From Armatimonadota bacterium (GTDB taxonomy: Bacteria > Armatimonadota > SYMT01), in NCBI GenBank assembly GCA_041690135.1, contig JAWLHY010000005.1, positions 340,106-404,105 of the forward strand: a stretch of 64,000 bases of DNA. Reading direction: 5' to 3'. The position numbers and the translations under genes are program-made. Positions within the stretch are counted from its first letter, which is position 1. The number at the start of each line of letters is the position of its first letter. Below the pieces are notes generated by a model that was not told the origin of the DNA, made no database searches, and worked only from the letters and a program-made list of their open reading frames with translations. Below are positions 31,030 through 64,000 of this stretch, one piece after another.

Positions 31030-32589
31030 TTATGGCGGTCCTCCCTCCGTCGTGCCGGGGAGGCTGAGAAACTTTCGGACCCGGGCAAGGATGTCGCCGC
31101 GGGCTTCCGAGAGGCGCGCCGCACGGGCGTCGGCGTCCAGGGTCTGCAGGACGGTATCCAGTTCCGCCCGCCGGCGGGCTAAAACCTGCGCGATCTCTTC
31201 CGCAAGGGCGGGCCGCGCCAGCAGCACTTCGCGGAAGGCTGCTTTTTCCAGGCGAAGGCACACGACGTCGGTGGCTGCGCGGACGGTGGCGCTGCGCGGC
31301 TCACCGGTCATCAGGCCCATTTCCCCAAAGAAACTGCCCGGAGCAAGCTCCGCCACACGACTGGCATCCCCTGCGACACTGGAGACCAGAACATCGGCAG
31401 TGCCGGAAACCAGGATAAACAGACAGTCCGCCGTCTCTCCTTGCCGGGCGATGATTTCCCCACTTCGGAAGGGAGAGGATTGGAGCCGCGCGGCCAGCCC
31501 CTGCAGTTCTTCGAGATGTAGACCAGTGAAGAGCTCCACGGAGCGGAGGGCGTGGAGACGTTCCTCGATTTCCTTCGCCGCCTTATCGCTCTTCCGTTCC
31601 GGGGTCTCCTGTGTCAGAAAGACGGCCTGGGCGGGGATGGAGAGCCCAATACCCGCCCGCCGCAGCGCGAAGTAGACGTGGGTGCGGACCTCCGAGTCGA
31701 CCGCGTCGTCCCCGGTGAGGTCCGTGAGCCAGTAGCGGGCGGCGTAACACCCGAAGCTATGTTCGAAGCTCAGGAGAAGGCAGTTGGGCGGAGGCTCGGT
31801 GGCCACGGCCCGGATGCGCGCGTTTTGTAGAGCCCTGCTCACGACCTCCATCACCTGGCTGGGCGGAACGCGGTAATCGACGTTGAACCGGACGGTCCTT
31901 CGCAACTGCACGGGTTGTCCCTGGCGCCGGCCCAGCACCAGGAAACGGTTCTTGACCAGTACGCCGTTCGGGATGACCACCGTTTCCCAATCGCGCGTCT
32001 CCAGCGAGGTATGGCGCCAGCGGATCTCGACAACGCGGCCCACGAGATCGTCCACCTGGATCCAGTCTCCCACCCGGATCGACTGGTCGAACTGAATGGC
32101 TACTCCGCCCAGGATGTTGCCGAGAGTGTCCTGGAGGGAGAGCCCGATGACGGCGGTGACCACCGCGGAGGTAGCGACCAAGCCGGCAACATTGACCCCG
32201 TTTTCCCGGAGCCAGATGAAGGACCACACGACGGCCGCGGTGGCGACGACCACCTCTTCCACGATCCGGGGTAGGGTCATCCGCGCCGCCGGAAGGGTCA
32301 CGCGGAATATGGCCACTCCCAGCAGCCGAATGATGCAGAACCCTTCCAGGAAGACGCAGGTCCAGCGCAGATAGCGAGCCGTGGACGATCCGGACCCGAA
32401 GAGGGGGTTCGCGGCCTCCAAACCGGCAATTGCCAGCAAGAATGCAGCCGCGATCATGGGCAGGGTGCGGTCGCCGGACTTTCGAGTCATCCCCCACAGC
32501 AGGGCCGCCAGAAGCAGGACGCCGACCACCATCGGCAGCCGGCCATCGGACAGCGCACCAGGGACACCATTTGCGGCGGCGAGTGGCAT
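31030..32589 (-). CDS. Mechanosensitive channel (MscS family) fused to a C-terminal cyclic-nucleotide-binding domain
   Basis: MscS TM3/beta-domain (VVTAVIGLSLQDTLGNILGGVAIQFDQSIRVGDWIQVDDLVGRVVEIRWRHTSLETRDWETVVIPNGVL). C-terminal cNMP-binding fold (FRSGEIIARQGETADCLFILVSGTADV...FFGEMGLMTGEPRSATVRAATDVVC). Confidence 0.8.
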   Translation of the reverse strand: MPLAAANGVPGALSDGRLPMVVGVLLLAALLWGMTRKSGDRTLPMIAAAFLLAIAGLEAANPLFGSGSSTARYLRWTCVFLEGFCIIRLLGVAIFRVTLPAARMTLPRIVEEVVVATAAVVWSFIWLRENGVNVAGLVATSAVVTAVIGLSLQDTLGNILGGVAIQFDQSIRVGDWIQVDDLVGRVVEIRWRHTSLETRDWETVVIPNGVLVKNRFLVLGRRQGQPVQLRRTVRFNVDYRVPPSQVMEVVSRALQNARIRAVATEPPPNCLLLSFEHSFGCYAARYWLTDLTGDDAVDSEVRTHVYFALRRAGIGLSIPAQAVFLTQETPERKSDKAAKEIEERLHALRSVELFTGLHLEELQGLAARLQSSPFRSGEIIARQGETADCLFILVSGTADVLVSSVAGDASRVAELAPGSFFGEMGLMTGEPRSATVRAATDVVCLRLEKAAFREVLLARPALAEEIAQVLARRRAELDTVLQTLDADARAARLSEARGDILARVRKFLSLPGTTEGGPP

Positions 32590-44600: not shown

Positions 44601-44923
44601 TCCACGTTGCGGGGAATCACCACGCCGATGGGCACCTGGCGGTAGTTCGAGGCGTCCGTGGCGTAGAGCGCGCGGCTGCCCGGATCGAACCGCAATTCTC
44701 CGTCCAGCAGCGATTCCAACTCTTGCTCCAGGCGGTCGGCGGCGATCTCACGCCGGCTCGAGCGATTGGCGGGGGCCGTGGAAGCGTTCGGCAGGACGGG
44801 AAGCGGTTCCGGAGCGGTGGTTCCGGATTCCTGGCGGGTGGTGGCGGACATGCTCTCTCCCTTCGCGCGCGCCAGCCACTCGCCCGGGCGGACCCGTCGC
44901 GGTGGCCGGCGGTGGTTCGTCAC
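41678..44923 (-). CDS. FAD-linked oxidase fused to 4Fe-4S and CCG domains (YdiJ-like), paralog 2
   Basis: 1081 aa, same domain order as 2847..5927: FAD PCMH domain (GGGTSIAGQ), CLSCKGCKQECP, C-terminal CCG motifs. Lacks the EG/QK-rich insertion. Confidence 0.85.
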   Translation of the reverse strand: MTNHRRPPRRVRPGEWLARAKGESMSATTRQESGTTAPEPLPVLPNASTAPANRSSRREIAADRLEQELESLLDGELRFDPGSRALYATDASNYRQVPIGVVIPRNVEDVVATVGAARRYGAPLLARGGGTSIAGQCCNVAVLMDFSKYLNGVLEIDPERRLARVQAGCVLDTLRKAAREHDLTFGPDPATHRWCTLGGMVGNNSCGVHSVMARMAGLGSRTSDNIHEMEILTYDGVRMRVGPTSEEELERIIREGGRKGEIYGRLKALRDRYADLIRERFPKLPRRVSGYNLDELLPENGFNVARALTGTESTCVVVLEVTTHLIPLPRERVLLLLGYPDVYQAADHVTEVLEFQPTGLEGIDGKFIEDLRKKDLNRKEICLFPEGNGWLLAEFGGNTVEEARERACRLMEKLRDREDAPSVKLFDDPEQQEMIWDVRENGLGATSHVPGERENWEGWEDSAVPPERVGHYLRDLHKLLERYDYHTSVYGHFGDGCIHARIDFDLKTAEGIRKWRSFLDEASDLVIGYGGSLSGEHGDGQARGELLPKLFGEELMEAFREFKAIWDPEGKMNPGKVINADPITTNLRYGAAYLQPELKTHFQFPSDHFSFGYAMERCVGVGKCRKEDVGTMCPSYMATREEMHTTRGRARLLFEMLQGDPLEHGWQSEHVKESLELCLSCKGCKQECPVQVDMATYKAEFLAHYFEGKRRPRQAYIFGFIHWWARLASLLPGMANFVAHAPGLRDLMKRAGGIAPDRELPAFAPQTFKQWFQKRAGARNQASARGRDSRRGPVILWPDTFNNHFHPEIAQAAVEVLEAAGFEVRVPQRDFCCGRPLYDWGFLDTAKQWLRQILTELQPEIQAGVPVVCLEPSCMSVFREELTNLFPNHEDAMRLQRQTFLLGEFLRERAPDFELPDLTRQAVVHGHCHHKATAGLDADRELFEAMGLDFQVLNSGCCGMAGAFGFEPGDKYEVSMQCGERVLLPAVREAPKDALIITDGFSCHEQIRQTTDREALHLAQVLRMALRQDEPVPRDYPESAFDRLEEDAADKAAATLRTAAIVGTGAVLGAGLVWALQRRRK

Positions 44924-50002: not shown

Positions 50003-50461
50003 TCGGCTCCGGACGAGAGTCCACAGATTACGCAGCGCATGCGTCCGAATGGAATGGGAAAGATGGGAAAGATGGGGCTCCGCGGGTGCGCGGGGCCCCG
50101 CCTTTATCCCGTTCGGGTGCGTTCAGGCCGGTAGCTTTCGCAGAGTGGCCGCGTCGTGGGGAGTGGAGCAGGACATGAAGAGTGACCGTCGCTATCCGAC
50201 GCCGATAGAGACCGGTGAAAAAGTGCTGCGGAAACTTCGGGAGATGTCCCGAGAGGAGATCGAGGAGGCGATTGACCGGGAAGGTCGCCGCCTACAGGAA
50301 GCGGCGGCGCGGGGGTGTGCCCAACGCCGCGAAGAGCTCGCCCGCCGCTGAGTGCCACTCGGATTCCCAAGCCGTAGCCGGCCCCAAGCGCTTTGTGCTC
50401 AAGAATGACTGGGCGGCGGCGAAGCTCGTGGGCTGCTTTGCCCACGAGTCGCACCTGGAGA

Positions 50462-50648
50462 ACTTCACGGATGCATCAAGAGCGGCAAGCGCCCGAACGC
50501 GGGCGTCGAAGACGGCCACAAGTGCACGCTCCTGTGTTTATTAGGAAACATCGCTTACCGCCCCGAGAGCACGCTGAAGATCGACCCGAAGACCGGTCAC
50601 CTCCTGAAGAGCAAGCCCGCCGCCCTCTGGGGGGCGCGAGGACCCTAA
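50462..50648 (+). pseudogene. Remnant of the 3' end of a Gfo/Idh/MocA oxidoreductase gene
   Basis: Translates to CIKSGKRPNAGVEDGHKCTLLCLLGNIAYRPESTLKIDPKTGHLLKSKPAALWGARGP. This matches the last ~60 residues of the intact gene at 48722..50002 (nucleotide identity roughly 80%). It has no N-terminal body and no start codon. Confidence 0.7.
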
Positions 50649-50972
50649 GGGCTGTGCGCCCAAGGGCTAAGCAGCAAGGCCGCCTAGTCAACCAAGTAAG
50701 CCTATTAATAGCCACTTGCTGCCAGGTCTTTGCATTGGAATGAAGCCTTCGGGGATTTCGTTGGACACGATCATCCGCCAATCCATTTCTACACAAGTGC
50801 AGGCCAGATGACGCGTACTGCACAGGGTCGATGATCCAAATGATAGTCCGCAAGGAATACATTACTTATTCACCCCGGTCGGTATCTGGCCCTGCTGACG
50901 TTAGGTAGGCGCCTCCATTGACTTGGCGTGCATCGAGCCGCCGTGTATTTCAGGCGCGGGTTTTGCAACAGA

Positions 50973-53777
50973 TCATGTGGGCAATGCGCCCGGCGCGAGA
51001 AGCCAATTCCAGTCCGTCTGGGTGAAGGAACCAGTGCGGAACCGTTCTCGCAGAGCGTGGACGTCGGGAGCGAGGTTGGGGACCGCTTCCTCTGCGGCGA
51101 CCGCTTCGGCGTGGGGCATGGCGTCGGCGGCGAGGTCTGCGAGCGTCAGCACAGGAAGGCTACAGGTACCGCTGCGTACGAGCTGCTGCACGGCAGTGAT
51201 GACTGCAATCTCCTGGGGCAGCTCGGCATGGAGGTTGCGTGCGAGGAAACGGCCGCCGACCTCAGGAGCGTTTACGGCGCCAGCGGAGCGGAGCGGAACC
51301 GTGCCGTCTCCGCGAGTGTTGGCGGTGCCAAATAGGTTGGCGACGGTGGGGTGCCGTTGGCTGACGACCAGGTAGGCACGCGTCAGCAGCGGACTGCCGC
51401 TGATCTTGCCCTTCAGCGCGCGGCTGCGCTTGAGGTGCAACTCGGAGGGCGCCAACTGTGGATCCGGCCAGCCGTTGGTGCGGTAGAGGGGGTGCGCGTC
51501 CCCGAAAACGGCGGGGTCTGGCAGCATGTCGAGCAGGCCGGAGAGCGAGCAGGCCATCAGCTGGAAATCGCGAACGGTATCGTTCCGTGATAGGAACGCG
51601 AGCTTCTTGAGGGTATCGTAGGTGCCGAGCACGGCCTGCATCGACGCATAGCTCCCGTGCAGGGGGGAGCCCAGCAGCACTGCGCTCTCCACCCGATCGC
51701 TCCATTCCCGGTGCCGGGCCGCGTAGAGGCAGGCCACCAGACCACCCATCGAGTGGGCGACGAGCGCGAACCTTTTGTGCGGACGCTGGGCGGCGAGTTC
51801 CTCGATGAACCGGTGGAGACTGTCCGCCAGTGCTTCGATCGGCTTGCGCCAATCGTAGGAGAACTCGTTGACTACGAACCCGGCGTTGCGCCAAGTTCGG
51901 GAGGCGCGGGCGTAGGTGAGCCGGAGCATGCCGTCCGGCTTGAGCACCTGCCCCGAGGTGGCTTCGCGCACGCCGTCCGGATCGAGCGAGAGGCGCTCGG
52001 CCAGATCGCCCGCGAAGAACGCCAGGGGGTTGATCCAGAGCCGCCCGCCCATGCCGGCGGTGCGGGCTAGGTGCCCGCCGAGGATGCCGTGGATGAAGAC
52101 GATCTCCGGCAGCGCGGGATCGGCGCGGCGCCCGAAGAGCCCTGACAGGAACGATTCCTCCAGGGCGACGGACTCCACCGTGGGCTCCCCGAGCGATACC
52201 AGGGTCAGTTCCCGGATGAGGGCATCAGCCTCCGCGGGCGGCAGCACCGCGTAGAGGCGCCGGGCCGTTTCGGCGGGATGGTCCTGCAGCTCGGCGGCGA
52301 TGGCCGCATCATCGGTCTGCTCGTACCAGGCGGTGGGCGAGACCGCTTCCGGCGCTGCTGCCGGGGTCAGCCCGAGGGACGCCGGCGCGGGCAACGGAGG
52401 ACCGGGCGCTGCTGGGGCCGGCGTGCCAGTCTCGCTCGCCGCCGGGTTGGAGCGGGCCGCGCGCCGCGTGTAGACGGTGGGACCGGAGCCGCGGTAGGTG
52501 TCCCAGTAACGGAGCCATTCCGGATCCGGCTGCTCCGGCGCGTCTTCCGGCACAGGGCTGAACCGGAAGCCCAGCGCCCGCAGGTAGGGATCTCGAGCCA
52601 GCTCCCAGGCGGGCACCGCCCAGTTGGTGAGCAGGTACTGCCCCGCGAAGTGGAGGCCGATCACCTCTCCCGTGAGCAGATCGAGGATCGCAGAGCCGGA
52701 GTTACCGGTTAGAGTGGAGCAGTCGTGCGTGAGCGCCTCCACCTCCGGGCGATTGAGGGGCGCAAAGCGGGAGAGCGGCTCCCGGCCGCCGTTCCGCACC
52801 ATGCCCAGGAGCCCGGGGAGGAGCCGCTTGCGGCCGTAGATTCCCCGGAACTCCCGGTCCTGGACCTCTACGTTGGAGAAGGGGTTCCGGTGCGGATAGC
52901 CCACGGTGACCACGTAGCGGCTCTCCAGCGGGCCGGCGGGGCGGACGGAGGCGAGGGTCAACGGGCGGGGCATCGCAGCCCCTAGCGGCGCCCGCACGGC
53001 CAGGACCGCGGCGTCCCAGTATGGGTGGATAAGGGCGACGTCTTCCACCTCCAGCAGCACTGGCGCCGGCTCCGGGGTGCCGGACGGGTGGACCTCACGG
53101 CGGGTGTCCAGAGCCGCCGCTCCGGGCCGGTAGGAGAGCGTACCGCTGCCGGGGTGCCCATGACCCGACGCGAACAGCTGCGCGACGTGCCGATTCGTCA
53201 GCAGCAGCCCCTCCCCCACGAAGAAGGCGGTGCCGCCGAACGGACGGAGCGGGTCCTGCGGCAGTTCCACGCGGCCAATGGCGGGGAGGGCGGCCTCCAG
53301 CAGTTCCCGCTCCCGGGGGCGGCCGAGGAATTCGAAAGGGAAGGCCGGCGTCTGGTACGTACCGCCGGTGACGTCGATGACGGGGCGCTCTCCGGGCAGG
53401 ATCACCTCTTCCAGCACTAACGCTTCCCGGGCGGTGAGTGGGTCCCCGTTCACCAGCTTGGTGACTACGTTCTGCGCGGTGCGGATCGTCTCGTCGGTAA
53501 GCCCTGGCGATGGGAGGGTGAAGGACTCGAAGGCCGCTTCCTCCCGGGCAGCCTGCTGCTGCCGGGACGTCAGCATCCGGGCGACGCTTTCCTCATTGAT
53601 CGGCCGCGCGGGTGGGAGCAGAGCCGGCGCGCTTCCTTCCGCCGGGATCCCCTCTTCTTCTCCCCGCTGGAATCGCTCGTGGAAGGCCTGCGCGGGCCGA
53701 TCCGAAGGGATTTTGCGTACCTGCTCGAAGTAGCGCAGGAGACGCTGCTGGTGGGCAGGAGAGTACGGATCGCTCAT
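50973..53777 (-). CDS. Multidomain putative effector: N-terminal helical adaptor, trypsin-like (S1) serine peptidase domain, Pro/Ala-rich linker, C-terminal alpha/beta-hydrolase (LCAT/PGAP1-like lipase) domain
   Basis: Start set at ATG 53777 (MSDPYSP..., RBS AAAGGA); the ORF track start is 53876. Peptidase region GGTAFFVGEGLLLTNRHV (His) ... TGNSGSAILD (Ser). Lipase region ...FALVAHSMGGLVACLYA (GxSxG nucleophile elbow). Confidence 0.7.
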   Translation of the reverse strand: MSDPYSPAHQQRLLRYFEQVRKIPSDRPAQAFHERFQRGEEEGIPAEGSAPALLPPARPINEESVARMLTSRQQQAAREEAAFESFTLPSPGLTDETIRTAQNVVTKLVNGDPLTAREALVLEEVILPGERPVIDVTGGTYQTPAFPFEFLGRPRERELLEAALPAIGRVELPQDPLRPFGGTAFFVGEGLLLTNRHVAQLFASGHGHPGSGTLSYRPGAAALDTRREVHPSGTPEPAPVLLEVEDVALIHPYWDAAVLAVRAPLGAAMPRPLTLASVRPAGPLESRYVVTVGYPHRNPFSNVEVQDREFRGIYGRKRLLPGLLGMVRNGGREPLSRFAPLNRPEVEALTHDCSTLTGNSGSAILDLLTGEVIGLHFAGQYLLTNWAVPAWELARDPYLRALGFRFSPVPEDAPEQPDPEWLRYWDTYRGSGPTVYTRRAARSNPAASETGTPAPAAPGPPLPAPASLGLTPAAAPEAVSPTAWYEQTDDAAIAAELQDHPAETARRLYAVLPPAEADALIRELTLVSLGEPTVESVALEESFLSGLFGRRADPALPEIVFIHGILGGHLARTAGMGGRLWINPLAFFAGDLAERLSLDPDGVREATSGQVLKPDGMLRLTYARASRTWRNAGFVVNEFSYDWRKPIEALADSLHRFIEELAAQRPHKRFALVAHSMGGLVACLYAARHREWSDRVESAVLLGSPLHGSYASMQAVLGTYDTLKKLAFLSRNDTVRDFQLMACSLSGLLDMLPDPAVFGDAHPLYRTNGWPDPQLAPSELHLKRSRALKGKISGSPLLTRAYLVVSQRHPTVANLFGTANTRGDGTVPLRSAGAVNAPEVGGRFLARNLHAELPQEIAVITAVQQLVRSGTCSLPVLTLADLAADAMPHAEAVAAEEAVPNLAPDVHALRERFRTGSFTQTDWNWLLAPGALPT

Positions 53778-53926
53778 GGATCTATCCTTTAAGTTACAGG
53801 CGAACCGGCGACCGGGCGTGGGGACGGCCTGAGGCGACCGGCAATGCAGGGAACTTTCTACCGGATGGTTGAACAATAGAGGGTGTCATTCCTCGCTCTG
53901 GGGGTAACGAGGCTGCCCGTATTGAG

Positions 53927-54014
53927 ATGAGTGCCGGTTGAGCCTGCGCCTGGTGAGCGAGCTAGGGGCTACAGGGGGCAAAGCCTGCCTGCGCAGGCTG
54001 GGAGTTCCGGCACT
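53927..54014. promoter_or_regulatory. Long interrupted inverted repeat in the divergent promoter region of the two peptidase genes
   Basis: GAGTGCCGG-TTG-AGCCTGCGC ... GCGCAGGCT-GGGAGTT-CCGGCACTC: two 9-bp arm segments on each side with a ~40-nt central region. Located between divergently transcribed genes 50973..53777(-) and 54342..55526(+). Confidence 0.45.
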
Positions 54015-54341
54015 CAACCAACGGTCTTCCCGAGAGGCGGGTACAAGCATGGTCTATTTGTGCTCGCCAGGACCCCGGACGAGAGATCCAATCGGGAGGC
54101 AGGTACCGGTCTGGCCTGGTGCCGAGATCCCTCCTGCAGTTAGGATGACTCCTTATGGGGGGCGACAATGCCCGGGTACGGTATTTTGTAAGTGGAAGCC
54201 GTTCAGTAGTGTTGCGTTCAGGATAACTGGTCCCGCAAGGTGTGAAATGCGTGAATGCCGTTGTTTGAGACCCACTACGACGAACCGGTTTCTGCTTTCG
54301 GTCAGCAATAGGTCAGCATTCGAACTACCTGACTACCGACT

Positions 54342-55526
54342 ATGCCCACACTCACGCGAGCTCAAGAAGATAACCTGATCCGGATCCTCTCCCGGCATCC
54401 GGATTTCCAGACGGCGGAGGACCGGCTGCGGTTGCTGCTGCAGATCATCCCAACCGCGGCGGACGGGGACGAGACCGCGTACCACGTGAACCTGGGAAAG
54501 GATGCCATCCGGGTCGCGGAGGGATTGCTCGCGCAGCTCAAGTTCGAGGGGGTGGGCCCGGACGGGGTCCACCGCCTGCGGCACATGGTAGCCGGTCTGC
54601 GGGAGAAGGTGCGAGACGAGCGGGACCGGGGACGGCTAGCGGGGATGCTCACCTACCTGGACCAGCACACCCCGGCGGTGGCGCCGCCCCCGCCGCCCCC
54701 GGCGCCGCTCCGCCCGGACCCGCAGCCGCGGCTGGACCCCGCGGACTGGCGGGGCAAGAATTCCGACGCACCGCCGTATGAGAAGGTGGTGCGGGTAAAT
54801 ACGCTGCGGCAGTTCTATCTGCTGGAGCGTGCGGTGCCTGCTTCACGCGGGGTGTTCCGCATCGAGGGACGTCCACCCGGCACGGAAGGCGAGCCGGCGG
54901 CTTCCACCGGCTTCCTCATCGCCCGCGGTGTGGAGACGGCCCCCGGCGGACCAAGGGTGGCGCTAGCGATGACGAACCACCACGTGATCGCCACTCTGGA
55001 AGAGTTCCCCGGTTATGAGTGCTGGTTCAATTACCGGCTTGACCTGGACGGCCGCGAGCCGGTGCCCTCGCCGCAAGGGTTCTGCAAGCTGCAGCCGCTG
55101 CCGCTGGCCGAGTGGTTCTTTACGGACGCGGGGCTGGACGTAACGGTGTTTGCGCTCGACGATGCGGTGGTGCCGGCGAATGCGGTGGCTCTGGGGGTGC
55201 GAGAGGCCCGCCCACTGGAGGGGGCGCGGGTGCCGATCATTCAGCACCCGAACGGGGAGTACCTGCAGATCTCGTTCCAGAGCAACTTCATCGCGTACGC
55301 GAACGACGAGATCCTGCAATACACCACTACTACCCTGCCCGGCTCTTCGGGCTCCCCTGTGTTCAATGAGCGGTTCGAGGTGATCGGGATCCACTCAATG
55401 GGCGGGGACCTGCCCCACCCCGGTCAGCCAGGACTGACTACCCTAATCAACCAGGGCACTTCAATCAAGGCGATCCTGGCGGTTCTGCCGGGGGCTATCC
55501 GTGGGCGGGTTATGGTGCTGGGGTAA
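54342..55526 (+). CDS. Trypsin-like (S1) serine peptidase with N-terminal alpha-helical adaptor (EAD-like) domain
   Basis: N-terminal ~110-aa helical region (EDNLIRILSRHPDFQTAEDRLRLLLQIIP...). Pro-rich linker (PPPPPAPLRPDPQPRLDP). Catalytic domain with LAMTNHHVI (His) and TLPGSSGSPVF (Ser). Confidence 0.75.
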   Translation: MPTLTRAQEDNLIRILSRHPDFQTAEDRLRLLLQIIPTAADGDETAYHVNLGKDAIRVAEGLLAQLKFEGVGPDGVHRLRHMVAGLREKVRDERDRGRLAGMLTYLDQHTPAVAPPPPPPAPLRPDPQPRLDPADWRGKNSDAPPYEKVVRVNTLRQFYLLERAVPASRGVFRIEGRPPGTEGEPAASTGFLIARGVETAPGGPRVALAMTNHHVIATLEEFPGYECWFNYRLDLDGREPVPSPQGFCKLQPLPLAEWFFTDAGLDVTVFALDDAVVPANAVALGVREARPLEGARVPIIQHPNGEYLQISFQSNFIAYANDEILQYTTTTLPGSSGSPVFNERFEVIGIHSMGGDLPHPGQPGLTTLINQGTSIKAILAVLPGAIRGRVMVLG

Positions 55527-55728
55527 GGTTGTGGGCTCGGGCAGAGCGGCCCGACGGTCGTAGTCTTGGCGCCGAACTTCGCGAATCGCTCGGATGTCAT
55601 ACCGTTCGTATGGCAGAGGGACAGGAAGCCAGGAAGCCAAGAGTGATGCCAAGCGACTGAACTCGCGGCTATAAAACGCGAAGCGAGCCTTCGCAGGGTG
55701 TAGCACCGACCTATCCACCCGCTCGCCC

Positions 55729-57408
55729 TTGAGTGGAGGGGGAGGTGTTAGCCCGGCTGACGGACAATTAACACTTGGGAGACAGCGGCTAATCCGAATA
55801 AGCCGCGACGAGGCACTGTCGTCTCCGGTACTGGTCTTGAGTTCGAACGTGCTCTTTCCACTGTTACAACCGGCCGACGAACGGCTGCTCCGCGACTATC
55901 TGCTCTCCGTGCTGGCACGAACCGGAGACGAGCCGGAGCGGCGCCGGGCCTTGTGCAAATACTTGCCGGACTCGGTAGCCCAGCTGCCGGCGGAGGCGTG
56001 GCTGACCGAGAGGCGGCTGCGACTGGACCGATCCCACGCTGAGATCCTGGAGCAGTTCTTCGAAGCGCTTCAGAGCCATCCGCCGGCGCTGTTGGCGCAC
56101 TTGGAAGTGCTGAGCCAGAGCGTGAAGGACGGGCCGACACGCGAGGAGTTCGCGCGGATGCGGGACGGGCTGCGGTTGGCCCTCGATCCGCTGACGGAGG
56201 CGCAGCGCCTTCTGGACGCCGCCGCTTCGGCGGACCCGGACGTCCTTCCGGACGCACTGGCCGCCGGTCTCTGGAAGGCGCTGGGGAAGCGCGAGTCGGG
56301 TACGTTCTGGCAGGCGGTGGCGCTGCTGGTGCCGCATCCCGCCCGCACTTACCAGGAGTCGGGACAGGAAGTGCTGCGCCTGCCGCTAGTGGTGGCGCTG
56401 GAGCGAACCGCGGCCCGGGTGGGCTTGTCCGGGCCAGACCGGACCCAGTATGGCGAACTCGTCCAGCAGGCGGTGGAGCGTCTTTACCCGCCGCCTCCCA
56501 AAGCCCCGGAGGCAGACCAAACAGCGCCGGGGCCTACCGCGCCGGCCTTCGATCCGATCACCGTGTACGTGCTGGCACTCGGCTCTAACACCCTGAGCAC
56601 GGCGGACACGCGCTACCGGCTGTGGTACACGGATCCGCAGGGAGACCGCGGCGCCCGAGACCTGACCGGCACCCTGAAGGAACTGCAGGCCGGCTTCTCC
56701 GCCTGGATCAGTGACGTCCTGTTCGAGTGGTCCGGCGATACCCCACTGGTGGAGTTTGTGCTGCCCGAGGAGTGCCTGGAGTGGGACGTGGAGCGTTGGG
56801 AAGTGGCCCTCAACCCGCGCAACCCAGCCACCGGAAAGCCGATTGGCACGGCGTTTCCGGTGGTGCTGCGGAACTGGGGGCGGTACGAAGCTCGGCCGCA
56901 CATCAAGCGCCTGGAGCGCCGCTGCAAGGAGTTGAAGGGCACCGGCACCCTGTACTGGTGCCACGAGCCGGCTCATGAGCCGGGCTTGCCGGTCTACCTG
57001 GACCACTCGGACTGCCGGACGGTGCTCTACCTGGGCGCGGGCTACCCCTTGCAGCGGACCGGCGGTAGAAACCTCTGGCTGGCGGTACTCCGGAACGGGG
57101 TTCCAGTAGTGATCTGGCGCCGCACCGCCGGCAGCGGAGCGGTGCCCATCCCGGACCAACTGGAGAAGCTACTCCATCAGGCACAGCGTCTCCACCCGTT
57201 CAACGAGCTGCCAAGTAAGATCAAGGACTGGCGCAGCCTGGTGATCCAGGAGCCACCGCAGTACGACGACACGGCGGATGAGGTCTCCCTGCTCTGGGAG
57301 AACCCCTACCGGCTCCCCGCCGCCCCACCCCTGCCCGAGGGGGCACCCACCGCACCCGACGAAGCTCGCCCGGCGCCGGCGCCCACCAGCACGGGGCGGA
57401 TCGATTGA
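55729..57408 (+). CDS. VMAP-like protein (vWA-MoxR-associated protein position) with N-terminal EAD-like helical motif
   Basis: 559-aa ORF immediately upstream of and overlapping (4 nt) the MoxR ATPase gene. There is no in-frame ATG near the 5' end, so TTG 55729 or a downstream GTG is the likely start. The N-terminus DERLLRDYLLSVLARTGDEPERRRAL resembles the N-termini of both peptidase effectors. No enzymatic motif recognised. Confidence 0.55.
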   Translation: MSGGGGVSPADGQLTLGRQRLIRISRDEALSSPVLVLSSNVLFPLLQPADERLLRDYLLSVLARTGDEPERRRALCKYLPDSVAQLPAEAWLTERRLRLDRSHAEILEQFFEALQSHPPALLAHLEVLSQSVKDGPTREEFARMRDGLRLALDPLTEAQRLLDAAASADPDVLPDALAAGLWKALGKRESGTFWQAVALLVPHPARTYQESGQEVLRLPLVVALERTAARVGLSGPDRTQYGELVQQAVERLYPPPPKAPEADQTAPGPTAPAFDPITVYVLALGSNTLSTADTRYRLWYTDPQGDRGARDLTGTLKELQAGFSAWISDVLFEWSGDTPLVEFVLPEECLEWDVERWEVALNPRNPATGKPIGTAFPVVLRNWGRYEARPHIKRLERRCKELKGTGTLYWCHEPAHEPGLPVYLDHSDCRTVLYLGAGYPLQRTGGRNLWLAVLRNGVPVVIWRRTAGSGAVPIPDQLEKLLHQAQRLHPFNELPSKIKDWRSLVIQEPPQYDDTADEVSLLWENPYRLPAAPPLPEGAPTAPDEARPAPAPTSTGRID

Positions 57409-57425
57409 AAACACAGGTATCTCCC

Positions 57426-58574
57426 ATGCAGCTCGAGCCCCCTACAGCTACTCCCAATCCGGACGTGCCCGCCGACTGGTGGGCATTCCACGGTGACCGC
57501 AACGCCGATGAGAAGATCGCGGCGGAGCGACGGTCCCGGCTGGGCCCCGCCCCGCCCTGGCGGCCGTCCCGGGCCGTGCCGGACAACACCCTCTACACGC
57601 CCCGTCCGGAGCCGCTGGGAGAGACCTATCGCTGCGGGAAGGCGGTGATCGAGATGGTCAACGCCGCTCTCGTGCTGCGGCGGCCGCTGTTGATCACCGG
57701 TGAGCCGGGCAGCGGGAAGTCGTCCCTGGCGTATGCCGTGGCGCGGGAACTGGGCCTGGGCCGCGTGCTGCGGTGGAACATTACCAGCCGCACCACCCTG
57801 CGGGACGGTCTGTACAGCTACGATGCCCTCGGGCGGTTGCAGGCTTCCGACCTGGGCGGCGACAGTGACCAGGTGGCGGAGATCGGGCAGTTCATCACCC
57901 TGGGGCCGCTGGGCACCGCGCTGCTGCCCTGGTCCACACCGCGGGTGCTGCTGATCGATGAGATCGATAAGAGCGACGTGGACCTCCCGAACGACCTGCT
58001 GCATGTGTTCGAAGAGGGCGAGTTCGAGATCCCGGAACTGGTGCGGCATCCGGATCCGGACGACCGGGGCGTGCGGGTGTGGCCGGACAAGGCGGACCGT
58101 CCGCCCCTGGACCGAACGAACCCGGTGCCGCCGGAGCAGTACCAGGTAACGGTGCACCGGGGCCGGGTGCAGTGCAGCCAGTTCCCCTTCGTGGTGCTGA
58201 CCAGCAACGCCGAGCGAGAGTTTCCGCCGGCGTTCCTGCGCCGGTGCCTGCGCCTGCGGCTGCCCCGACCCGGCCGCGACCAACTGAAGGAGATCGTGCG
58301 GGCCCACTTCTCCAATCCGGAGCGGCCGGTGCCCTCCGAGACGCAGCTCGACGAGCTGATCAGCCGGTTTCTCAAGCGGCGGGACGTGGGCGCCCTGGCC
58401 AACGACCAGCTGCTGCAGGCGCTGTTCCTGCGGCTGCGGGGCGGGGAGGCGATCGACAGCAACCCGGAAGATGACCTCCGGAACCTGATCAACCGGCTGC
58501 TCCATCCCCTGAACCAGCCGGAGGCGGCGGTGGAGCCGGACGAGGACGCGGATGACGGCTGCGGGCGCGGATAA
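57426..58574 (+). CDS. MoxR-family AAA+ ATPase
   Basis: Walker A LLITGEPGSGKSSLAYAVA. Walker B VLLIDEIDKSD. Sensor-1 VVLTSNAEREF. Arg finger PPAFLRRCLRLRL. ATG 57426 is chosen; a TTG at 57405 is the alternative. Confidence 0.85.
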   Translation: MQLEPPTATPNPDVPADWWAFHGDRNADEKIAAERRSRLGPAPPWRPSRAVPDNTLYTPRPEPLGETYRCGKAVIEMVNAALVLRRPLLITGEPGSGKSSLAYAVARELGLGRVLRWNITSRTTLRDGLYSYDALGRLQASDLGGDSDQVAEIGQFITLGPLGTALLPWSTPRVLLIDEIDKSDVDLPNDLLHVFEEGEFEIPELVRHPDPDDRGVRVWPDKADRPPLDRTNPVPPEQYQVTVHRGRVQCSQFPFVVLTSNAEREFPPAFLRRCLRLRLPRPGRDQLKEIVRAHFSNPERPVPSETQLDELISRFLKRRDVGALANDQLLQALFLRLRGGEAIDSNPEDDLRNLINRLLHPLNQPEAAVEPDEDADDGCGRG

Positions 58575-61500
58575 GTCGCCATCGGCGCCGGAATCCCTGA
58601 TCCAGTTGCTCGACTGCCTGAGCGGGCTGGAAACCCGCCTGCTCGCCGCGGAATTGGCGGACGTGCTCTGGCTGGCCCAGCGGCTGCCGGAGCGGCAGGC
58701 ACCTTCCCGGTCCGGGGAGGCGGCCGAGGCACCGGCAACGGAGGAGACGGAGAGCCCCCGGGATTCGGCCCGGTCCGAGGCCGGATCGCCCGACGGCACG
58801 CCTGCCCACACGGACGCCGACTCGGGTACTAACGCGGAGGTCGGACAGGAGAGGGAACGTCCACCGGGATCTGTCCCACCGACGGACGCCGGGCAGCCGG
58901 AGGACGAGCGGATCCGACTATTTCCAGGCCGTCCCAACTCCCCCGAGCAGACGGGCGCGGGCGAGATGCCTTCTTCCTCATTCCAGGGCACGGCAGCCCG
59001 CGCCCTCCCCCGGACCCGGCAGATCCTGCGGGCCCTCCGCCCACTCGCGGGCCGGGTCCCCTCGCCCCGGCGGGACGAGCTGGAGGTGGACGTCGAGGCA
59101 ACGCTCGAGCGGATTACGGAGGGGCTGCTGGCTGCCCGCGCTCGTTCGGAAGCCAGTGGGGCGGCGCGCCGCAACCGTCCCATTCCCCGCACGCCCGTGT
59201 TGCGGCCGGCCGAGGTGCGGCCCTACGAGCTGCACCTGGTGGTGGATACCAGCGCCAGCATGGCGGTGTGGGAGGAGGCTGCGGGAGAGCTGGCACAGCT
59301 GCTGGTGGGCCTGGGCAGCTTCTCGGACGTGCGGGTCTGGTACCTAGACACCCAGTCTGGCGGGGAGCCGCCGCTCTACGCGGGAGTCCGGTGCGGCGGG
59401 GGGACCCAACGCGGGGAGCGGCGGTCCGGTGCCGAGCTGCGGGGCGGGGGCGGCAGCATTCCGGGTGCCGGGGCGCGGCTGGTGCTGGTGCTGACTGACG
59501 GCCTGGGGCCAGCATGGTGGGATGGCCGGGCGCTGGACCTGCTGGCCTCCTGGGCGGACACGGGCCGGGTAACGCTGCTCCAGACGCTGCCGGAGCGGCT
59601 CTGGGGCCGCGCGGTGCACGGTGTACCTCGCTGGCTGGTGGGCGCCCACGAGGCCGGTGTCCCGAACCGGCGGCTGCTCACGGCTCCCCGGCCGGGCGTC
59701 CGCAGCGCGGCGCCGGCGAACGCCCCCCGGTATGATCGAGACCCGGAACGAGTTTACGTTCCGGTGGTCGCGCTAGACCCGGACCCGCTGCACACCTGGG
59801 CGCGACTGATGACCGGACGCGGCGGGGTGTGGCTGCCGGCGTTTCGCATGCGCCTGAAGTCCTCACCGGCCCAAACCGTCGCGCCTCTCGAGCCCGTAGA
59901 CCCGGAGGAGCCGGAAACCGAGGCGGCGCGGGCAGCCCGGATGGTACGCGAGTTCCGGGCTGGCGCCCCCTGGGAGGCACGCCGCCTGGCGGAACTGTTC
60001 GCGGCCGTGGGCACCCTCACCATACCGGTGATGCGCGCCATCCAGGATGCGATGGTGGCCGGCTCCGGGCTGGAGGCACTGGCGGAGGTGCTGGCCAGCG
60101 GCCTGCTGGAAGCCCGCGAAGCTGCGGGCGGGACGGTCTACGCTTTCCGTGGAGAGCAGCACGGGATAGCCCTGCGCCAGCGGCTGTGGCAGCGCGCAAG
60201 CGTTCCGGACACGCTGCGGGCCATGCAGACGGCACTGAACGAGCTCCAGCGGAGCGTGGGGGATTTTCTGGCCGGAATGAACGCCGAAGGTGCAGCCCAG
60301 CCGCTCCAGGTGCTTGATCCACAGGGCCTCCAGCGGCTGTCGGCGGACCACGCCCTGGCGCCGTTCGCGGCGGTGGCGGCGGAGTACCTGGAGTCGCTGG
60401 GCGGGCAGTACGTGCGGAGCGCCCGGACGTGGCAGACAGGCATCGCGTTACCGCCGCATCAAGGAGACGCCGGCGATCCCACGTCGTATTCGCTGAACGA
60501 TCTGATCGCGTTGTCCCGGAACCTGGACGGACAGGGCCCGTGGCTGCAGGGGAAGGTACCGCCCATCCATCTCCTCACCGCAGCGGAGAAGCTCGGGGAG
60601 CCGATCAGCGCGGTAATGCACCGGCTGGGCCGGTTTGAAGCCCGGTTCGAGCTGGAGCTGCCGGTGCTCGACGACCTCGAGCTGACGGCACTTGATGAGC
60701 CGCTGCCTAACGAAGCCGATCGGATCGTGCTGTCCCACGGTCTGGACGGCCAGACGCCCTGGCTGCACGGGCGGGTCGGGAAAGAACACCTCCTGGCAGC
60801 GGCCGTCCAACTGCGAGAGCCCGTGGTGACCGTGCGGCAGCGACTGGAGCGGTTCGCGGCCCTGTTCGAGCTAGAGCTCCCGGCACCCGGCGACCCCTCC
60901 CCCACCCAACCCCTGCGGGTCTTCGTCTCGGCGTCGTTCCGGTATTGCCACCAGGAACGGCGGGCGATCTTGGCGGAGTTGGCCCGGCGCCCGGAGATCG
61001 TGGACACCAGTTGGGAAGCACTGCCGGCGGACCAGCGGGACCGGCAGCACCGGCTGCCGGTGGTGGCCGCATGCGATCTCTTCCTGCTGCTCCCGGGGGA
61101 GGGGCCCAGCGCGGGGCTGGAGGCGGAATACGCCGCAGCATTGGAGCACGGGAAGACCTGCCTCGCATACTTCCACCGGGACGCGGCACCGCTGGACGAA
61201 ACCACGCGGGAGTTCTGGAAGAGACTCCGGGACCGGCACGGCGTTCGGACTTATGGCAGCTCGGAAGAACTGATCCGGCAGGTCTCACTCGACCTCGATT
61301 TTGAGCTGGCGCGGCTGACCGGGAAAGTTCAGGAGCACCCGATGGAGGTGGTGGTCCTGTTCTCGGATGGGCAATGCGCGGCTCTGCCGGTAGGCGTCGG
61401 CGTGTTGGACGCGGCGTTCCACGTGGACCCCGAGCTAGGGCTGCGGATGAACGGCGCGCGCGTGAACGGCGAGGCGGTGCCGCTGAGCTATCAACTCCGT

Positions 61501-64000
61501 CAACGGGATCAGGTGGAGCTGGTCACGACCCCCCACAGTTATCCGTCCCGGGAGTGGCTCGACTGGGTTCAGACCGAGCGGGCGCGGCACGCCATCCGGG
61601 ACTGGCTGCGCCGCTACCAGGTGTATGTGGCTGCCGGCGAGATTCCCGACATCCCGGGCCTACAGTTTGAGTGGGCGGTCCGGTCAGACATCCCCGAGAG
61701 AGAGCGAGCAGCAGTCCTCCGCGAATGCGGCCTCTTCATAGCCACATTCCGGCCGCCTGGGTTTGACTACTGGGAAGGGATCCGGGACGGAGATGTGTCG
61801 GTGGTCCGTGGCGCAGTAGGACAGCACCTTCCAGAGTTCGCTCTGGCCCGGCGGTTGGGACTCCGCTGCCTCATCTACCTGTATGACGATGTGGACGGCC
61901 GCAAACCCGCGGGAATGCTCACAGCGGAAACACTCTATCGCTGCGCTAATGTCTCAGAGTTGCGTGAGGCCATGCGCGGCGACTTCCAGGCGGCTGTGGC
62001 AAACCAATGGCCGCTAGAGGGGATTCGAGACGGACGAGAGCCCTTGCTCCGCGACCTGTACCAAATGCTAGGGCTACCCCCACTACGCAGTGATCTGGAG
62101 ACCTTCGAGCTCTCGAGGTTCGCTGGCGAGCGAGGATGGTTAGTCCAGGACTTGAACCGTCCAAATCTGGCGATGCTGGTGTCCGCCGTGCGGGGTTTGC
62201 AGAAGGCACCCGCGGCCGTATGGGCGTTGCCACTGCCGCGAACGAACGTCGAGAATGAACTTCTAAACCGCCTGGCAGGCTGGCTGCGCCAGGAACCGGC
62301 AAGCTCTCTGCGCGCGCTGCAGCGTTTTTGGGGAATGTGCGGTCGGGCGGCGCAGCAACCCACTGACGGGCGGGCGGTGGCGGGTTACCTTCTAGCGTTG
62401 GTGTGGTTGGGGCAACTAGTAGAGGGGAACTTTGGGAGGGCCGATCCCGCTCTGGTACTGTCCCCGCTGAATCCCCCCAACCTGCGCGATTTCCTCGTTC
62501 TCGTGGGGGGACGGCAGCCGGCGGCGCTCGATTTCCGCATTGCCGTGGATGGTGTGACAGTGGCGCACCTCCCCCGCCTTCGTCTCGACACACCCGAATC
62601 GGAGGTGAGGCGGCAGGCGCTGGAGGTTCCCGAGGTCGTTGAGCGTATCGTGAACCGAAACGTCCGCTCTGTCGAGGTGAGCTTCGGGACTGGGGTGACA
62701 ATTTCCACCGAGCCGGCATCCCACCCATCATTGACTGGATGCCGTGTCCTCTGGTGTGATCCCAAGCAAGACCGTGTCAATAGCAGGGAGATAAGCTGGC
62801 TCCAGCAACACGGCGCCGTGATTGCCCGCGTACCGCCCAGCCACGTTCAGCTAGCATTAGGGAGTGGGCTTCCATACGACGCGCTGATTACGAGCATGGG
62901 CGGCGTGTTGCCAGAGGAAGATAGTCTGGGCCTTCATGTGGTTAGGATCGCGAGGCGGCTACGGCCGGAACTCCCGGTGATCCTGTTTACCCACCGCACC
63001 GTGCCATCGGTTCAGGAGGCCAGAGAGGCGGGAGTTGCGCTGATCACCCCCAAAGTTGAGGTGATCCTGCGGGAACTCCAAACGCTGGTCGACCGCCGAA
63101 CCCCGACCCTGCCCGAGGATTCGGAGGGGTTCTACACGGAGCGCGGTCTTTGCGACGTGATCGACCGGTACCAACTCCGGAGTGGGCGCCAGGAAGCCGA
63201 CGCGGTGCTCACCCTGCTGCTGCTGTTCCGGACGGAGACGCAGCGGACGTGGTTGGCAACCACCCACCGGCATCTCTACATCTTGCTGGATGATGCGGAG
63301 ACGCGCGCTACGGGACCGGATACGGAGCGCGTGATCCAGGAAGAACTGACGCTGAAGGAGGCCCAGCCCGTCTTCAGCAGCGAAGCACGGGAGTGGCTGG
63401 AAACGCGTCTTCTCCACATCGGCCGGGCGCGGAACTGGCATTACACGCTCTCCCTCCACCCGCGTGCGCAGGACCTCGAGGTGACTGTCCGCGAGTTGAT
63501 TCTTAATGCGAGACACGGTGATCTTAACCCAACATACCGGCAGCTCTTGCTGCTGGCTGCCGAATACGAGGCCATCCAAGCGACACAAGAGGCCGGTGGC
63601 GAGCGCTCACGCCGTTCGGTATCGGTCTACAAGAGGATGCAGCGATCCAGCCAGGCAGCTGACAGGGCACTGCTTTCCCGCCTAGCTACCAGCGAGAGCC
63701 CGGGCGAACGGTTGGCGGCGGTAGCCATCCTTCAGGAGAAGCCAGCTTCGGAGTATCTGCACTGGCTAGCTGCCCGCGTGCATGAGGACCAGGCGTTTAT
63801 CGGGTATCAGGCCGCGCTGGCCCTAACCACGGCGGCCGAGGAACTCAATTCGGTCTACCTGGAAGAGGTAGGCACAAGCATCCGCTCGGCTCGGGATACA
63901 CTGACCTCAGAGGTGAAGGCCGGCACTGACACGGATCGCTACCGCGTACTCGAGCGAGGACTCGAGGTCCTCGTACAGCGCGAGCGGCAGGATGAGGCGC
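58552..64000 (+). CDS. Giant vWA-domain protein (>1816 aa, 3' end outside window) with DUF4062/TIR-like, TGS, receiver-like and HEAT-like modules; vWA partner of the MoxR ATPase
   Basis: A frame-1 ORF opens after TGA 58510-12. The first ATG is 58552, overlapping the MoxR stop by 23 nt. I found no stop codon through position 64000; it is absent from the ORF track because it is open-ended. MIDAS-type vWA motif LHLVVDTSASMAVW at ~59233-59274. DUF4062-like RVFVSASFRYCHQERRAILAEL (~60913). TGS-like VVVLFSDGQCAALPVGVGVLDAAFHV...ARVNGEAVPLSYQLRQRDQVELVT (~61342-61530). CheY-like CRVLWCDPKQD...PVILFTH (~62740-63000). HEAT-like C-terminal repeats. Confidence 0.75.
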   Translation, partial: MTAAGADKSPSAPESLIQLLDCLSGLETRLLAAELADVLWLAQRLPERQAPSRSGEAAEAPATEETESPRDSARSEAGSPDGTPAHTDADSGTNAEVGQERERPPGSVPPTDAGQPEDERIRLFPGRPNSPEQTGAGEMPSSSFQGTAARALPRTRQILRALRPLAGRVPSPRRDELEVDVEATLERITEGLLAARARSEASGAARRNRPIPRTPVLRPAEVRPYELHLVVDTSASMAVWEEAAGELAQLLVGLGSFSDVRVWYLDTQSGGEPPLYAGVRCGGGTQRGERRSGAELRGGGGSIPGAGARLVLVLTDGLGPAWWDGRALDLLASWADTGRVTLLQTLPERLWGRAVHGVPRWLVGAHEAGVPNRRLLTAPRPGVRSAAPANAPRYDRDPERVYVPVVALDPDPLHTWARLMTGRGGVWLPAFRMRLKSSPAQTVAPLEPVDPEEPETEAARAARMVREFRAGAPWEARRLAELFAAVGTLTIPVMRAIQDAMVAGSGLEALAEVLASGLLEAREAAGGTVYAFRGEQHGIALRQRLWQRASVPDTLRAMQTALNELQRSVGDFLAGMNAEGAAQPLQVLDPQGLQRLSADHALAPFAAVAAEYLESLGGQYVRSARTWQTGIALPPHQGDAGDPTSYSLNDLIALSRNLDGQGPWLQGKVPPIHLLTAAEKLGEPISAVMHRLGRFEARFELELPVLDDLELTALDEPLPNEADRIVLSHGLDGQTPWLHGRVGKEHLLAAAVQLREPVVTVRQRLERFAALFELELPAPGDPSPTQPLRVFVSASFRYCHQERRAILAELARRPEIVDTSWEALPADQRDRQHRLPVVAACDLFLLLPGEGPSAGLEAEYAAALEHGKTCLAYFHRDAAPLDETTREFWKRLRDRHGVRTYGSSEELIRQVSLDLDFELARLTGKVQEHPMEVVVLFSDGQCAALPVGVGVLDAAFHVDPELGLRMNGARVNGEAVPLSYQLRQRDQVELVTTPHSYPSREWLDWVQTERARHAIRDWLRRYQVYVAAGEIPDIPGLQFEWAVRSDIPERERAAVLRECGLFIATFRPPGFDYWEGIRDGDVSVVRGAVGQHLPEFALARRLGLRCLIYLYDDVDGRKPAGMLTAETLYRCANVSELREAMRGDFQAAVANQWPLEGIRDGREPLLRDLYQMLGLPPLRSDLETFELSRFAGERGWLVQDLNRPNLAMLVSAVRGLQKAPAAVWALPLPRTNVENELLNRLAGWLRQEPASSLRALQRFWGMCGRAAQQPTDGRAVAGYLLALVWLGQLVEGNFGRADPALVLSPLNPPNLRDFLVLVGGRQPAALDFRIAVDGVTVAHLPRLRLDTPESEVRRQALEVPEVVERIVNRNVRSVEVSFGTGVTISTEPASHPSLTGCRVLWCDPKQDRVNSREISWLQQHGAVIARVPPSHVQLALGSGLPYDALITSMGGVLPEEDSLGLHVVRIARRLRPELPVILFTHRTVPSVQEAREAGVALITPKVEVILRELQTLVDRRTPTLPEDSEGFYTERGLCDVIDRYQLRSGRQEADAVLTLLLLFRTETQRTWLATTHRHLYILLDDAETRATGPDTERVIQEELTLKEAQPVFSSEAREWLETRLLHIGRARNWHYTLSLHPRAQDLEVTVRELILNARHGDLNPTYRQLLLLAAEYEAIQATQEAGGERSRRSVSVYKRMQRSSQAADRALLSRLATSESPGERLAAVAILQEKPASEYLHWLAARVHEDQAFIGYQAALALTTAAEELNSVYLEEVGTSIRSARDTLTSEVKAGTDTDRYRVLERGLEVLVQRERQDEA

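Follow-up and report, generated by a model that had tools for sequence, protein, structure and literature searches.

A five-gene island of an Armatimonadota bacterium that probably couples a VMAP-type MoxR-vWA core to a pair of proteases, one of them fused to a phospholipase

The stretch of DNA analyzed here, called the window, comprises 64,000 nt of contig JAWLHY010000005.1 from an Armatimonadota bacterium, and all coordinates are positions within it. An island of five genes, G1 to G5, runs from 50973 to past 64000; the original prediction, made from the letters of the DNA, had read them as one system of the vWA-MoxR-VMAP class. All five open reading frames (ORFs) were confirmed, each with the codon-position pattern of a real gene (GC content at third positions, 0.78 to 0.86) in a window of 65% GC. 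G1 (50973 to 53777, minus strand, 934 aa; database copy P0122) encodes a fusion of a trypsin-like peptidase with an LCAT/LPLA2-like hydrolase, and its start in P0122 is the ATG at 53777, not the TTG upstream at 53876. G2 (54342 to 55526, plus strand, 394 aa), an EAD8-like domain joined to a trypsin-like peptidase, diverges from it, and the promoters of both genes presumably lie in the 564-bp intergenic region (53778 to 54341). No match to the sigma-70 consensus was found in this region, and a scan of 50 to 56 kb gave no promoter-like sites; a single 12-nt palindrome is present at 53984 to 54001. The same scan returned a single minus-strand terminator-like site (55695 to 55677), fewer than the 3.4 expected from shuffled sequences.

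The remaining three genes follow G2 on the plus strand. G3, which encodes a VMAP protein, occupies 55849 to 57408 (519 aa) if translated from a GTG; the maximal ORF runs from a TTG at 55729 to 57408. The GTG at 55849 is the most likely start, judging by the start of its database copy, P0001, and the aligned starts of the closest relatives, P0238 and P0239. G4 (57405 to 58574, 389 aa) encodes a MoxR-clade AAA+ ATPase, and G5, which starts at 58552, encodes a giant vWA protein; the window holds its first 1,816 codons. The full protein (P0002) has 2,771 aa, so that the gene would end near 66867 in window numbering, outside the window. Overlaps of 4 and 23 nt had been claimed for these genes. The 23-nt overlap of G4 and G5 is solid, with GAGGA six bases before the ATG at 58552. 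The 4-nt overlap of G3 and G4 holds only if G4 starts at the TTG at 57405, an alternative being the ATG at 57426, 21 nt further on; 4-nt overlaps are found at the corresponding junctions of two related loci, L090 and L091. No tRNA or Rfam family was detected across the whole window.

G3 matches the Pfam family VMAP-C (PF20028) with 93.1 bits (cutoff, 27; E = 3.3e-26) over profile positions 5 to 226 of 226, and the domain lies at nt 56614 to 57306. VMAP proteins have a tripartite layout, with a peptidase, cyclase, or EAD at the N terminus, VMAP-M in the middle, and VMAP-C at the end; of these, only VMAP-C is recognized in G3. Residues 1 to 294 (the N-terminal and middle regions, ∼250 aa) gave no Pfam EAD or VMAP-M match even at E ≤ 10, and the N-terminal part of the closest relative, P0238, is likewise without a Pfam match to EAD or VMAP-M. 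More distant VMAP proteins do carry EAD1, EAD2, trypsin, and VMAP-M0/1 domains, and this region of G3 may be a new or highly divergent version. A HMMER search of 1.84 billion cluster representatives with G3 gave 27 matches at E ≤ 1e-3, just two of them close, and a word-index search returned only G3's own sequence.

The ATPase is MoxR-like, as had been proposed. G4 scores 28.8 bits with AAA_5 (cutoff, 22) and 29.2 bits with AAA, and narrowly misses bpMoxR (26 bits; cutoff, 27). Its best solved relative is midasin (E = 5.9e-9, and 1.9e-7 in a profile search); apart from midasin, the MoxR profile gave only Walker-A-level matches in the PDB. We aligned G4 with the ATPases encoded between the VMAP-C and vWA genes of four other loci (L001, L090, L091, and L092), to which it is 47 to 63% identical. 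Walker A (G99 to S106, with K105), Walker B (D185/E186), sensor 1 (T266 to N268), and the arginines R279 and R280 are all intact. Two N-terminal motifs, WxhapG and PsWRxa, are specific to the MoxR proteins of VMAP systems (Kaur et al. 2020, PMC7159879). In G4 we find WWAFHG (aa 25 to 30), which fits the first, and PPWRPS (aa 50 to 55), which fits the second save for the final, aromatic position; both align in three other ATPases from a VMAP context.

G5 contains a vWA domain. The NCBIfam model SAV_2336_NTERM (NF041121) matches it with 312 bits against a cutoff of 200. The assignment rests on this match together with motifs and fold; no Pfam VWA model matches G5, and searching the PDB with a profile built from its vWA sequence also retrieved nothing. 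An alignment of 15 sequences shows D232 (in DTSAS), D316 (in LTDG), E34, and W40 to be invariant, and the invariant columns include the ELADxLW extension. D232 and D316 are the aspartates expected at the ends of vWA strands 1 and 4 and, with S234 and S236, make up the metal ion-dependent adhesion site (MIDAS). An AlphaFold2 (AF2) model has a predicted local distance difference test score (pLDDT) of about 85 to 90 over aa 150 to 570, and its top Foldseek matches are the VWA domains of NorD from NorQ-NorD complexes (E = 2.7e-5), followed by CMG2, integrin, and vWF-A. The vWA core (aa ∼217 to 435) is preceded by a helical extension (ELADVLW, aa 34 to 40) and a disordered linker (aa 48 to 147), and is followed by a second helical extension reaching to about aa 570.

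Beyond the vWA region G5 is an array of modules. Two wHTH-Hsp90_Na-associated domains (aa ∼650 to 780) precede the DUF4062-like region (aa 789 to 849), whose weak signal lies below the Pfam cutoff. A TGS domain (aa 935 to 992) comes next, and a stretch of about 700 aa in the window part of the protein is without domain assignment; a sequence search with aa 1440 to 1700 gave no solved relative. Beyond the window lie HEAT repeats, a metacaspase-like domain (aa ∼2036 to 2290; PDB 3bij, 6e-13; MCA2, 1e-11), and a TIR_2 domain (aa 2309 to 2425). The metacaspase-like domain is probably inactive, judging by the alignment, because the positions of the catalytic His and Cys are occupied by R2092 (in FAGRG) and S2149 (in DCSHSG); many of the peptidase domains that vWA components carry as fusions are inactive (Kaur et al., PMC7159879). 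Homologs of G5 resemble it over the N-terminal third only, with identities of about 30%. In their C-terminal parts they bear wholly different arrays (STAND NTPases, kinases, TPR, CHAT/caspase, SAVED-TIR-SIR2, WD40), and this variability is the effector-displacement pattern that defines the VMAP class. A helical module of ∼115 aa is present in G5 in two copies with 33% identity, at aa ∼1668 to 1781 (nt 63553 to 63895) and aa ∼2471 to 2584, the second directly after the TIR domain; its motif, GERLxAxxxLxxxPxxExLxWLAAR followed by FxGY, matches no family.

We also considered whether G4 and G5 make up a MoxR-vWA chaperone pair of the ordinary sort, like NorQ/NorD, CoxD/CoxE, or RavA/ViaA, that serves the maturation of a metalloenzyme or respiratory complex, with the proteases unrelated to it. 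Two points would fit: among solved structures the vWA domain of G5 is closest to NorD, and oxidoreductase genes lie upstream of the island. This housekeeping explanation was rejected as extremely improbable: a VMAP-C protein is present, and VMAP-C has so far been found in conflict systems only (PMC7159879); G4 bears the VMAP-specific N-terminal motifs; TIR, caspase-like, TGS, and wHTH modules sit on the 2,771-aa G5; the C-terminal arrays of its homologs are highly variable; and the operon lacks a client enzyme gene. The assignment of G3 to G5 to the vWA-MoxR-VMAP class therefore stands on the VMAP-C domain, the MoxR motifs, the vWA evidence, and the gene order.

The two genes at the 5' end of the island encode proteases. 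In G2, the trypsin-like peptidase (aa 189 to 350; Pfam Trypsin_2, 1.7e-15) has an intact triad, H214/D266/S336. An EAD8-like helical adaptor at aa 10 to 97 is followed by a Pro-rich linker; the EAD that had been noted here is seen as a signal of 23.6 to 26.2 bits, under the Pfam cutoff of 27. G1 begins with a helical region, which is followed by a trypsin-like serine peptidase module (aa ∼95 to 430; H197/D255/S360), a disordered Pro/Ala-rich linker (aa 430 to 476; pLDDT below 40), a small helical domain (aa 481 to 528), and an α/β-hydrolase resembling LCAT and lysosomal phospholipase A2 (LPLA2) at aa ∼556 to 930, with S676 as the nucleophile in AHSMGG, a GxSxG motif. Pfam reports Trypsin_2 (2.7e-12), LCAT (2.5e-10), PGAP1, and Abhydrolase_1. 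The AF2 model of G1 has a pLDDT of 82, with low-confidence linkers at aa 430 to 476 and 531 to 548, and Foldseek matches its C-terminal domain to LPLA2 (4x92, 7e-9) and LCAT and its protease to Rv3671c and HtrA/DegS. The remaining domain calls of the original prediction were thus verified: Trypsin_2 twice, an LCAT/PGAP1-type hydrolase, VMAP-C, AAA_5, and TGS.

G1 belongs to a family in which the trypsin module is constant and the partner toxin varies: LCAT-like (∼24 proteins), Endonuclease_NS (∼70), Lipase_3, PLD-like, or Endonuclease_1. H197, D255, and S360 are invariant in an alignment of 41 family members, and the G1 trypsin module (aa 95 to 430) is 36 to 49% identical to those of the ∼70 trypsin-Endonuclease_NS proteins and of the Lipase_3, PLD, and Endonuclease_1 fusions. 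A scan of GTDB species representatives with this family gave more than 590 loci, and neighborhoods were counted in the best 80. A second, separate trypsin gene is present in 48 of these 80 loci and a STAND-type ATPase in at least 14. At a Mesorhizobium locus (L064), for example, the family member is followed by a trypsin, a bDLD2-trypsin, and a NACHT ATPase, and a Zoogloea member has a TPR-S-trypsin upstream and adjoining TIR genes. Some members are solitary (e.g., L088). The family is the "NucA-trypsin" system ("System 3") of Kaur et al. (PMC7159879). We conclude that G1 is not VMAP-specific, and that it belongs to a NucA-trypsin/LypC-like family whose usual neighbors are STAND/NLR-like sensors.

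Two further observations concern the LCAT-type members of this family. A pair of P-loop proteins is conserved after them (L005, 12461 to 16196; also L007, L009, L015, L020, and L044), in Acidobacteria, Cytophagales, and Gaiella. The pair, of 351 aa (weak AAA_22) and 899 aa (weak AAA_16/NPHP3_N), has almost no Pfam signal and is probably a divergent STAND-type sensor pair; an EAD5-trypsin is the next gene in both loci that have gene calls (L005 and L006). The 1,043-aa protein P0237 joins an LCAT-like hydrolase (30% identity to G1 aa 557 to 870) to a CHAT/caspase-like domain, and is a fused form of the α/β-hydrolase-caspase pairing described for VMAP systems.

The gene set of the island is found again in unrelated contigs, so the clustering is not chance adjacency. 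Overlapping genes in the order VMAP, MoxR, vWA are kept in L001 to L003, L090, L091, and L092 as in the window. L092, a 6.9-kb contig of 51% GC that clearly derives from another organism, carries the nearest G3 relative, P0238, in the order 303-aa α/β-hydrolase, 396-aa G2 ortholog, VMAP, MoxR, vWA. Identities to the island are 56% for G2 (over its full length, including the adaptor), 31 to 33% for VMAP, 63% for MoxR, and 41% for vWA. Because a different organism thus keeps a full-length ortholog, with its EAD8-like domain, directly 5' of VMAP-MoxR-vWA, we conclude that G2 is a conserved member of the operon. L001, from a soil metagenome, has all five genes on one strand: the closest G1 homolog, P0123 (58 to 59% identity), then an EAD1/EAD7-trypsin, VMAP-C, AAA_5, and a giant vWA-WD40 protein. 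P0123 is co-directional with the EAD-trypsin gene and 23 nt upstream of it, and L002 and L003 have the same gene set. Just upstream of the five-gene system in L001 (7160 to 9000, minus strand), and also in L002 and L003, an AAA_15/AAA_21 ATPase gene (439 aa) overlaps a gene of 174 aa; the pair looks like another two-gene defense candidate.

Taken together, we favor, with fair confidence, the reading that the island is a VMAP-type MoxR-vWA ternary core coupled to a two-protease module that ends in a phospholipase. The catalytic motifs are kept throughout (His-Asp-Ser in G1 and G2, GxSxG in the G1 lipase, and Walker A/B in G4), and no other NTPase sensor adjoins G1 in the window. The membership of G1, part of the system as originally proposed, is one of the weak points of this reading. 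In its favor stands the five-gene set of L001 to L003; a lack of specificity for VMAP systems is evident from the genome loci, 0 of 80 of which have MoxR, vWA, or VMAP beside the G1-family gene.

That count is one of several points that weigh against the reading. The linkage of G1 to a VMAP operon is found in one independent extra organism, and a metagenome scan with the G2 alignment gave no composite locus past the L002 contig. G1 is divergent from G2 to G5, unlike the co-directional copy in L001, and the hydrolase domain of the L001 homolog is itself truncated by about 200 aa. The L092 hydrolase is encoded by a stand-alone gene and has no protease domain. According to the "EAD principle," a neighboring effector or peptidase and the core component bear the same adaptor domain (Kaur et al., PMC7159879); no copy of the G2 adaptor was found on G3 or G5 by Pfam, BLAST, or hhalign (probability, 0.5%), or on G1 by BLAST and hhalign, in searches that used shallow alignments and an hhalign profile of 3 sequences only. 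PADLOC-DB v2 does not recognize the system: the weak partial matches (RT-Protease, IetA, mad8; E ≥ 5e-5) concern P-loop and protease motifs only, and G3 and G5 have no match to any of its models. The literature searched yielded no experiments with a VMAP system. The statement that none has been characterized thus holds for VMAP systems, with the addition that the protease-cascade module has experimental analogues (PMC10312443, PMC13236601). One of these bears on the toxin: the effector domain of Caulobacter LypC is dispensable for lysis (PMC13236601), and by this analogy the toxin fused to G1 may not be the killing activity.

The points on strand and linkage would also suit an arrangement in which two separate systems share the island, G2 to G5 being a four-gene VMAP system and G1 an independent NucA-trypsin/LypC-type effector or a CARD-NLR-like remnant without its sensor. 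The plain hydrolase upstream of the G2-G5 operon in L092 and the solitary G1-family members point the same way. Nevertheless, we judge this unlikely. The closest G1 homolog lies immediately 5' of, and co-directional with, an EAD-trypsin-VMAP-MoxR-vWA operon; L092 has an α/β-hydrolase at the very position of G1; and most family loci have a second protease, some also an NTPase sensor, for which G2 and the VMAP core are the only candidates in the window.

If the five genes do form one system, its operation can be sketched from the model of Kaur et al. and from the CARD-NLR, LypABC, and nuclease-protease systems; every step of this proteolytic cascade is inferred by analogy. An invader-derived cue would be recognized by the fast-evolving N-terminal part of VMAP or by a module of G5. 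ATP hydrolysis by MoxR would then remodel the vWA protein, which would hold a peptide through its MIDAS, and so set a threshold. The adaptor-bearing protease G2 would next be recruited and activated, and would cleave G1 and possibly the interdomain linkers of G5. Phospholipase (membrane damage) and TIR (NAD+ consumption) would thereby be unleashed, and the infected cell would die or arrest.

The same architecture could serve another end, namely programmed lysis or a conflict between self and non-self; examples would be the release of gene transfer agent (GTA) or prophage-like particles, developmental death, and kin discrimination. LypABC, which resembles G1/G2 in architecture, controls GTA-linked lysis and lies outside defense islands (PMC13236601); the flanks of our island consist of housekeeping and metabolic genes, not defense genes; and Kaur et al. 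(PMC7159879) tie such systems to a multicellular way of life. On the other hand, CARD-NLR relatives that share the module protect against phage (PMC10312443), the L001 copy adjoins the AAA_15/AAA_21 gene pair and the Zoogloea member its TIR genes, and the examined parts of the window showed neither GTA nor prophage genes. We regard a non-antiviral role as improbable, and continue with the VMAP core coupled to a protease-phospholipase module as the preferred reading.

Within it, G1 and G2 would be, by analogy, the same kind of output module as is driven by NLR-like STAND ATPases in CARD-NLR and LypABC, with the MoxR-vWA-VMAP core in place of the NLR. A more general proposal, which we put forward tentatively and somewhat doubt, is that G1 and G2 are a portable proteolytic output cassette for which NLR-like STAND ATPases and a MoxR-vWA-VMAP core are alternative drivers. 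If this were true, the VMAP core would be equivalent in function to a device of the inflammasome type that senses and sets a threshold, and the island and its relatives in L092 and L001 would offer, for the first time for any VMAP system, a simple biochemical read-out: cleavage of G1 that depends on G2, and then phospholipase activity.

The genes upstream of the island encode GFO/IDH/MocA oxidoreductases, a thiamine pyrophosphate (TPP) enzyme, FAD oxidases, methionyl-tRNA synthetase (MetRS), and aconitase. Between a GFO/IDH/MocA gene and the stop codon of G1, thus downstream of G1, lie 970 bp (50003 to 50972) without a convincing ORF; two short direct repeats (18 and 13 nt) are each spaced by exactly 275 bp, and alignment of the two parts shows no real duplication. 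Elsewhere in the window, three sets of genes, all on the minus strand, deserve mention. A 1,246-aa protein (27239 to 30979) combines PSCyt1, PSCyt2 (DUF1549), and PSD1 (DUF1553), a combination typical of Planctomycetota that, taken by itself, suggests a planctomycete-like host. Two paralogous giant fusions of ∼1,030 to 1,080 aa, located 36 kb apart (2847 to 5927 and 41678 to 44923), share FAD_binding_4, FAD-oxidase_C, a 4Fe-4S dicluster, and CCG, and look like glycolate or D-lactate oxidase fusions. A gene at 31030 to 32589, unrelated to the island, encodes an MscS-type mechanosensitive channel domain with a cyclic-nucleotide-binding domain. The window proteins that were looked up in sequence clusters are all singletons or near-singletons.

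The class to which the core belongs is already known from computation. The prediction of VMAP-type vWA-MoxR ternary conflict systems dates from 2020, with about 1,500 examples catalogued; the proposal is that in multicellular prokaryotes they are the bacterial counterpart to immunity of the apoptosis-like kind (eLife, PMC7159879; Kaur, Burroughs, Iyer, and Aravind). The island shares with them VMAP-C, a motif-bearing MoxR, a vWA protein with helical extensions and a C-terminal multidomain effector array, overlapping genes, and a stand-alone EAD-trypsin gene adjoining the VMAP gene, as well as a probably inactive peptidase domain on the vWA protein and TIR and TGS as effector domains. The G5 type corresponds to the NCBI family "SAV_2336 N-terminal domain-related protein." The vWA proteins of the class have 1 to 11 domains, with a mean of 3 (PMC7159879), and the length of G5 (2,771 aa) and its roughly 11 modules place it at the upper end of this range. 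The island differs in several respects. Its host is neither an actinobacterium nor a cyanobacterium. The N-terminal and middle region of G3 fits no Pfam VMAP-M or EAD family, and no cognate EAD was found. Kaur et al. (PMC7159879) pair trypsin with Trypco1/2 and α/β-hydrolase with caspase, whereas here trypsin is paired with an α/β-hydrolase; no Trypco match was found in the five proteins. The published pairing also has a caspase on both VMAP and vWA proteins (PMC7159879), whereas the caspase-like domain of G5 has no matching caspase on G3.

Similar in part are MoxR-vWA chaperone pairs such as NorQ-NorD and midasin. They share an AAA_5/MoxR ATPase with a MIDAS vWA partner; they differ in that they mature or remodel a specific client complex, and have no VMAP, effector array, or associated proteases. 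Hachiman and AVAST contain a pro-nuclease that is activated by a trypsin-like protease (Tuck et al., Science 2025, PMC12799240). The nuclease-protease pairs of Hachiman, AVAST, and Lamassu resemble the proposed cascade in that a sensor-attached trypsin-like protease cleaves a latent hydrolytic effector site-specifically and the pair moves among unrelated sensors. Their effector, however, is a separate metallo-β-lactamase (MBL)-fold pro-nuclease, their protease is fused to the sensor, and the families are unrelated; the island has two proteases, with the effector fused to one of them.

The closest likeness of G1 and G2 is to the NucA-trypsin, CARD-NLR (PMC10312443), and LypABC (PMC13236601) systems, and for the last two it is one of architecture and family homology. 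Operons of a CARD-protease, an NLR-like ATPase, and a trypsin-fused effector protect against phage (Wein et al., PMC10312443). Caulobacter LypC is a trypsin-endonuclease protein whose protease serine is required for lysis (PMC13236601), and it has in common with G1 a protease, a flexible linker, and a toxin domain. A second trypsin with an N-terminal helical adaptor (EAD, bDLD2, or CARD-like) is also shared among these systems and the island. The differences lie in the toxin, which is an LCAT/LPLA2-like phospholipase and not an endonuclease; in the adaptor, which is EAD8-like and not bDLD2 or CARD; and in the core, since MoxR-vWA-VMAP sits where a STAND/NLR-like ATPase would be. No such ATPase was found among the five genes or within 15 kb upstream, and the sole NTPase is G4. 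The island is thus a rare hybrid, set apart from the published class by its trypsin/α/β-hydrolase pairing, an unclassifiable G3 N terminus, and a NucA-trypsin/LypC-type effector on a VMAP core. On the reading that we favor, it documents that MoxR-vWA-VMAP and STAND/NLR, sensor types with no other relation, have exchanged a module, and it combines a VMAP core with an output module of a kind that genetics has shown to work in CARD-NLR and LypABC, which provides defined catalytic residues and a testable cleavage step.

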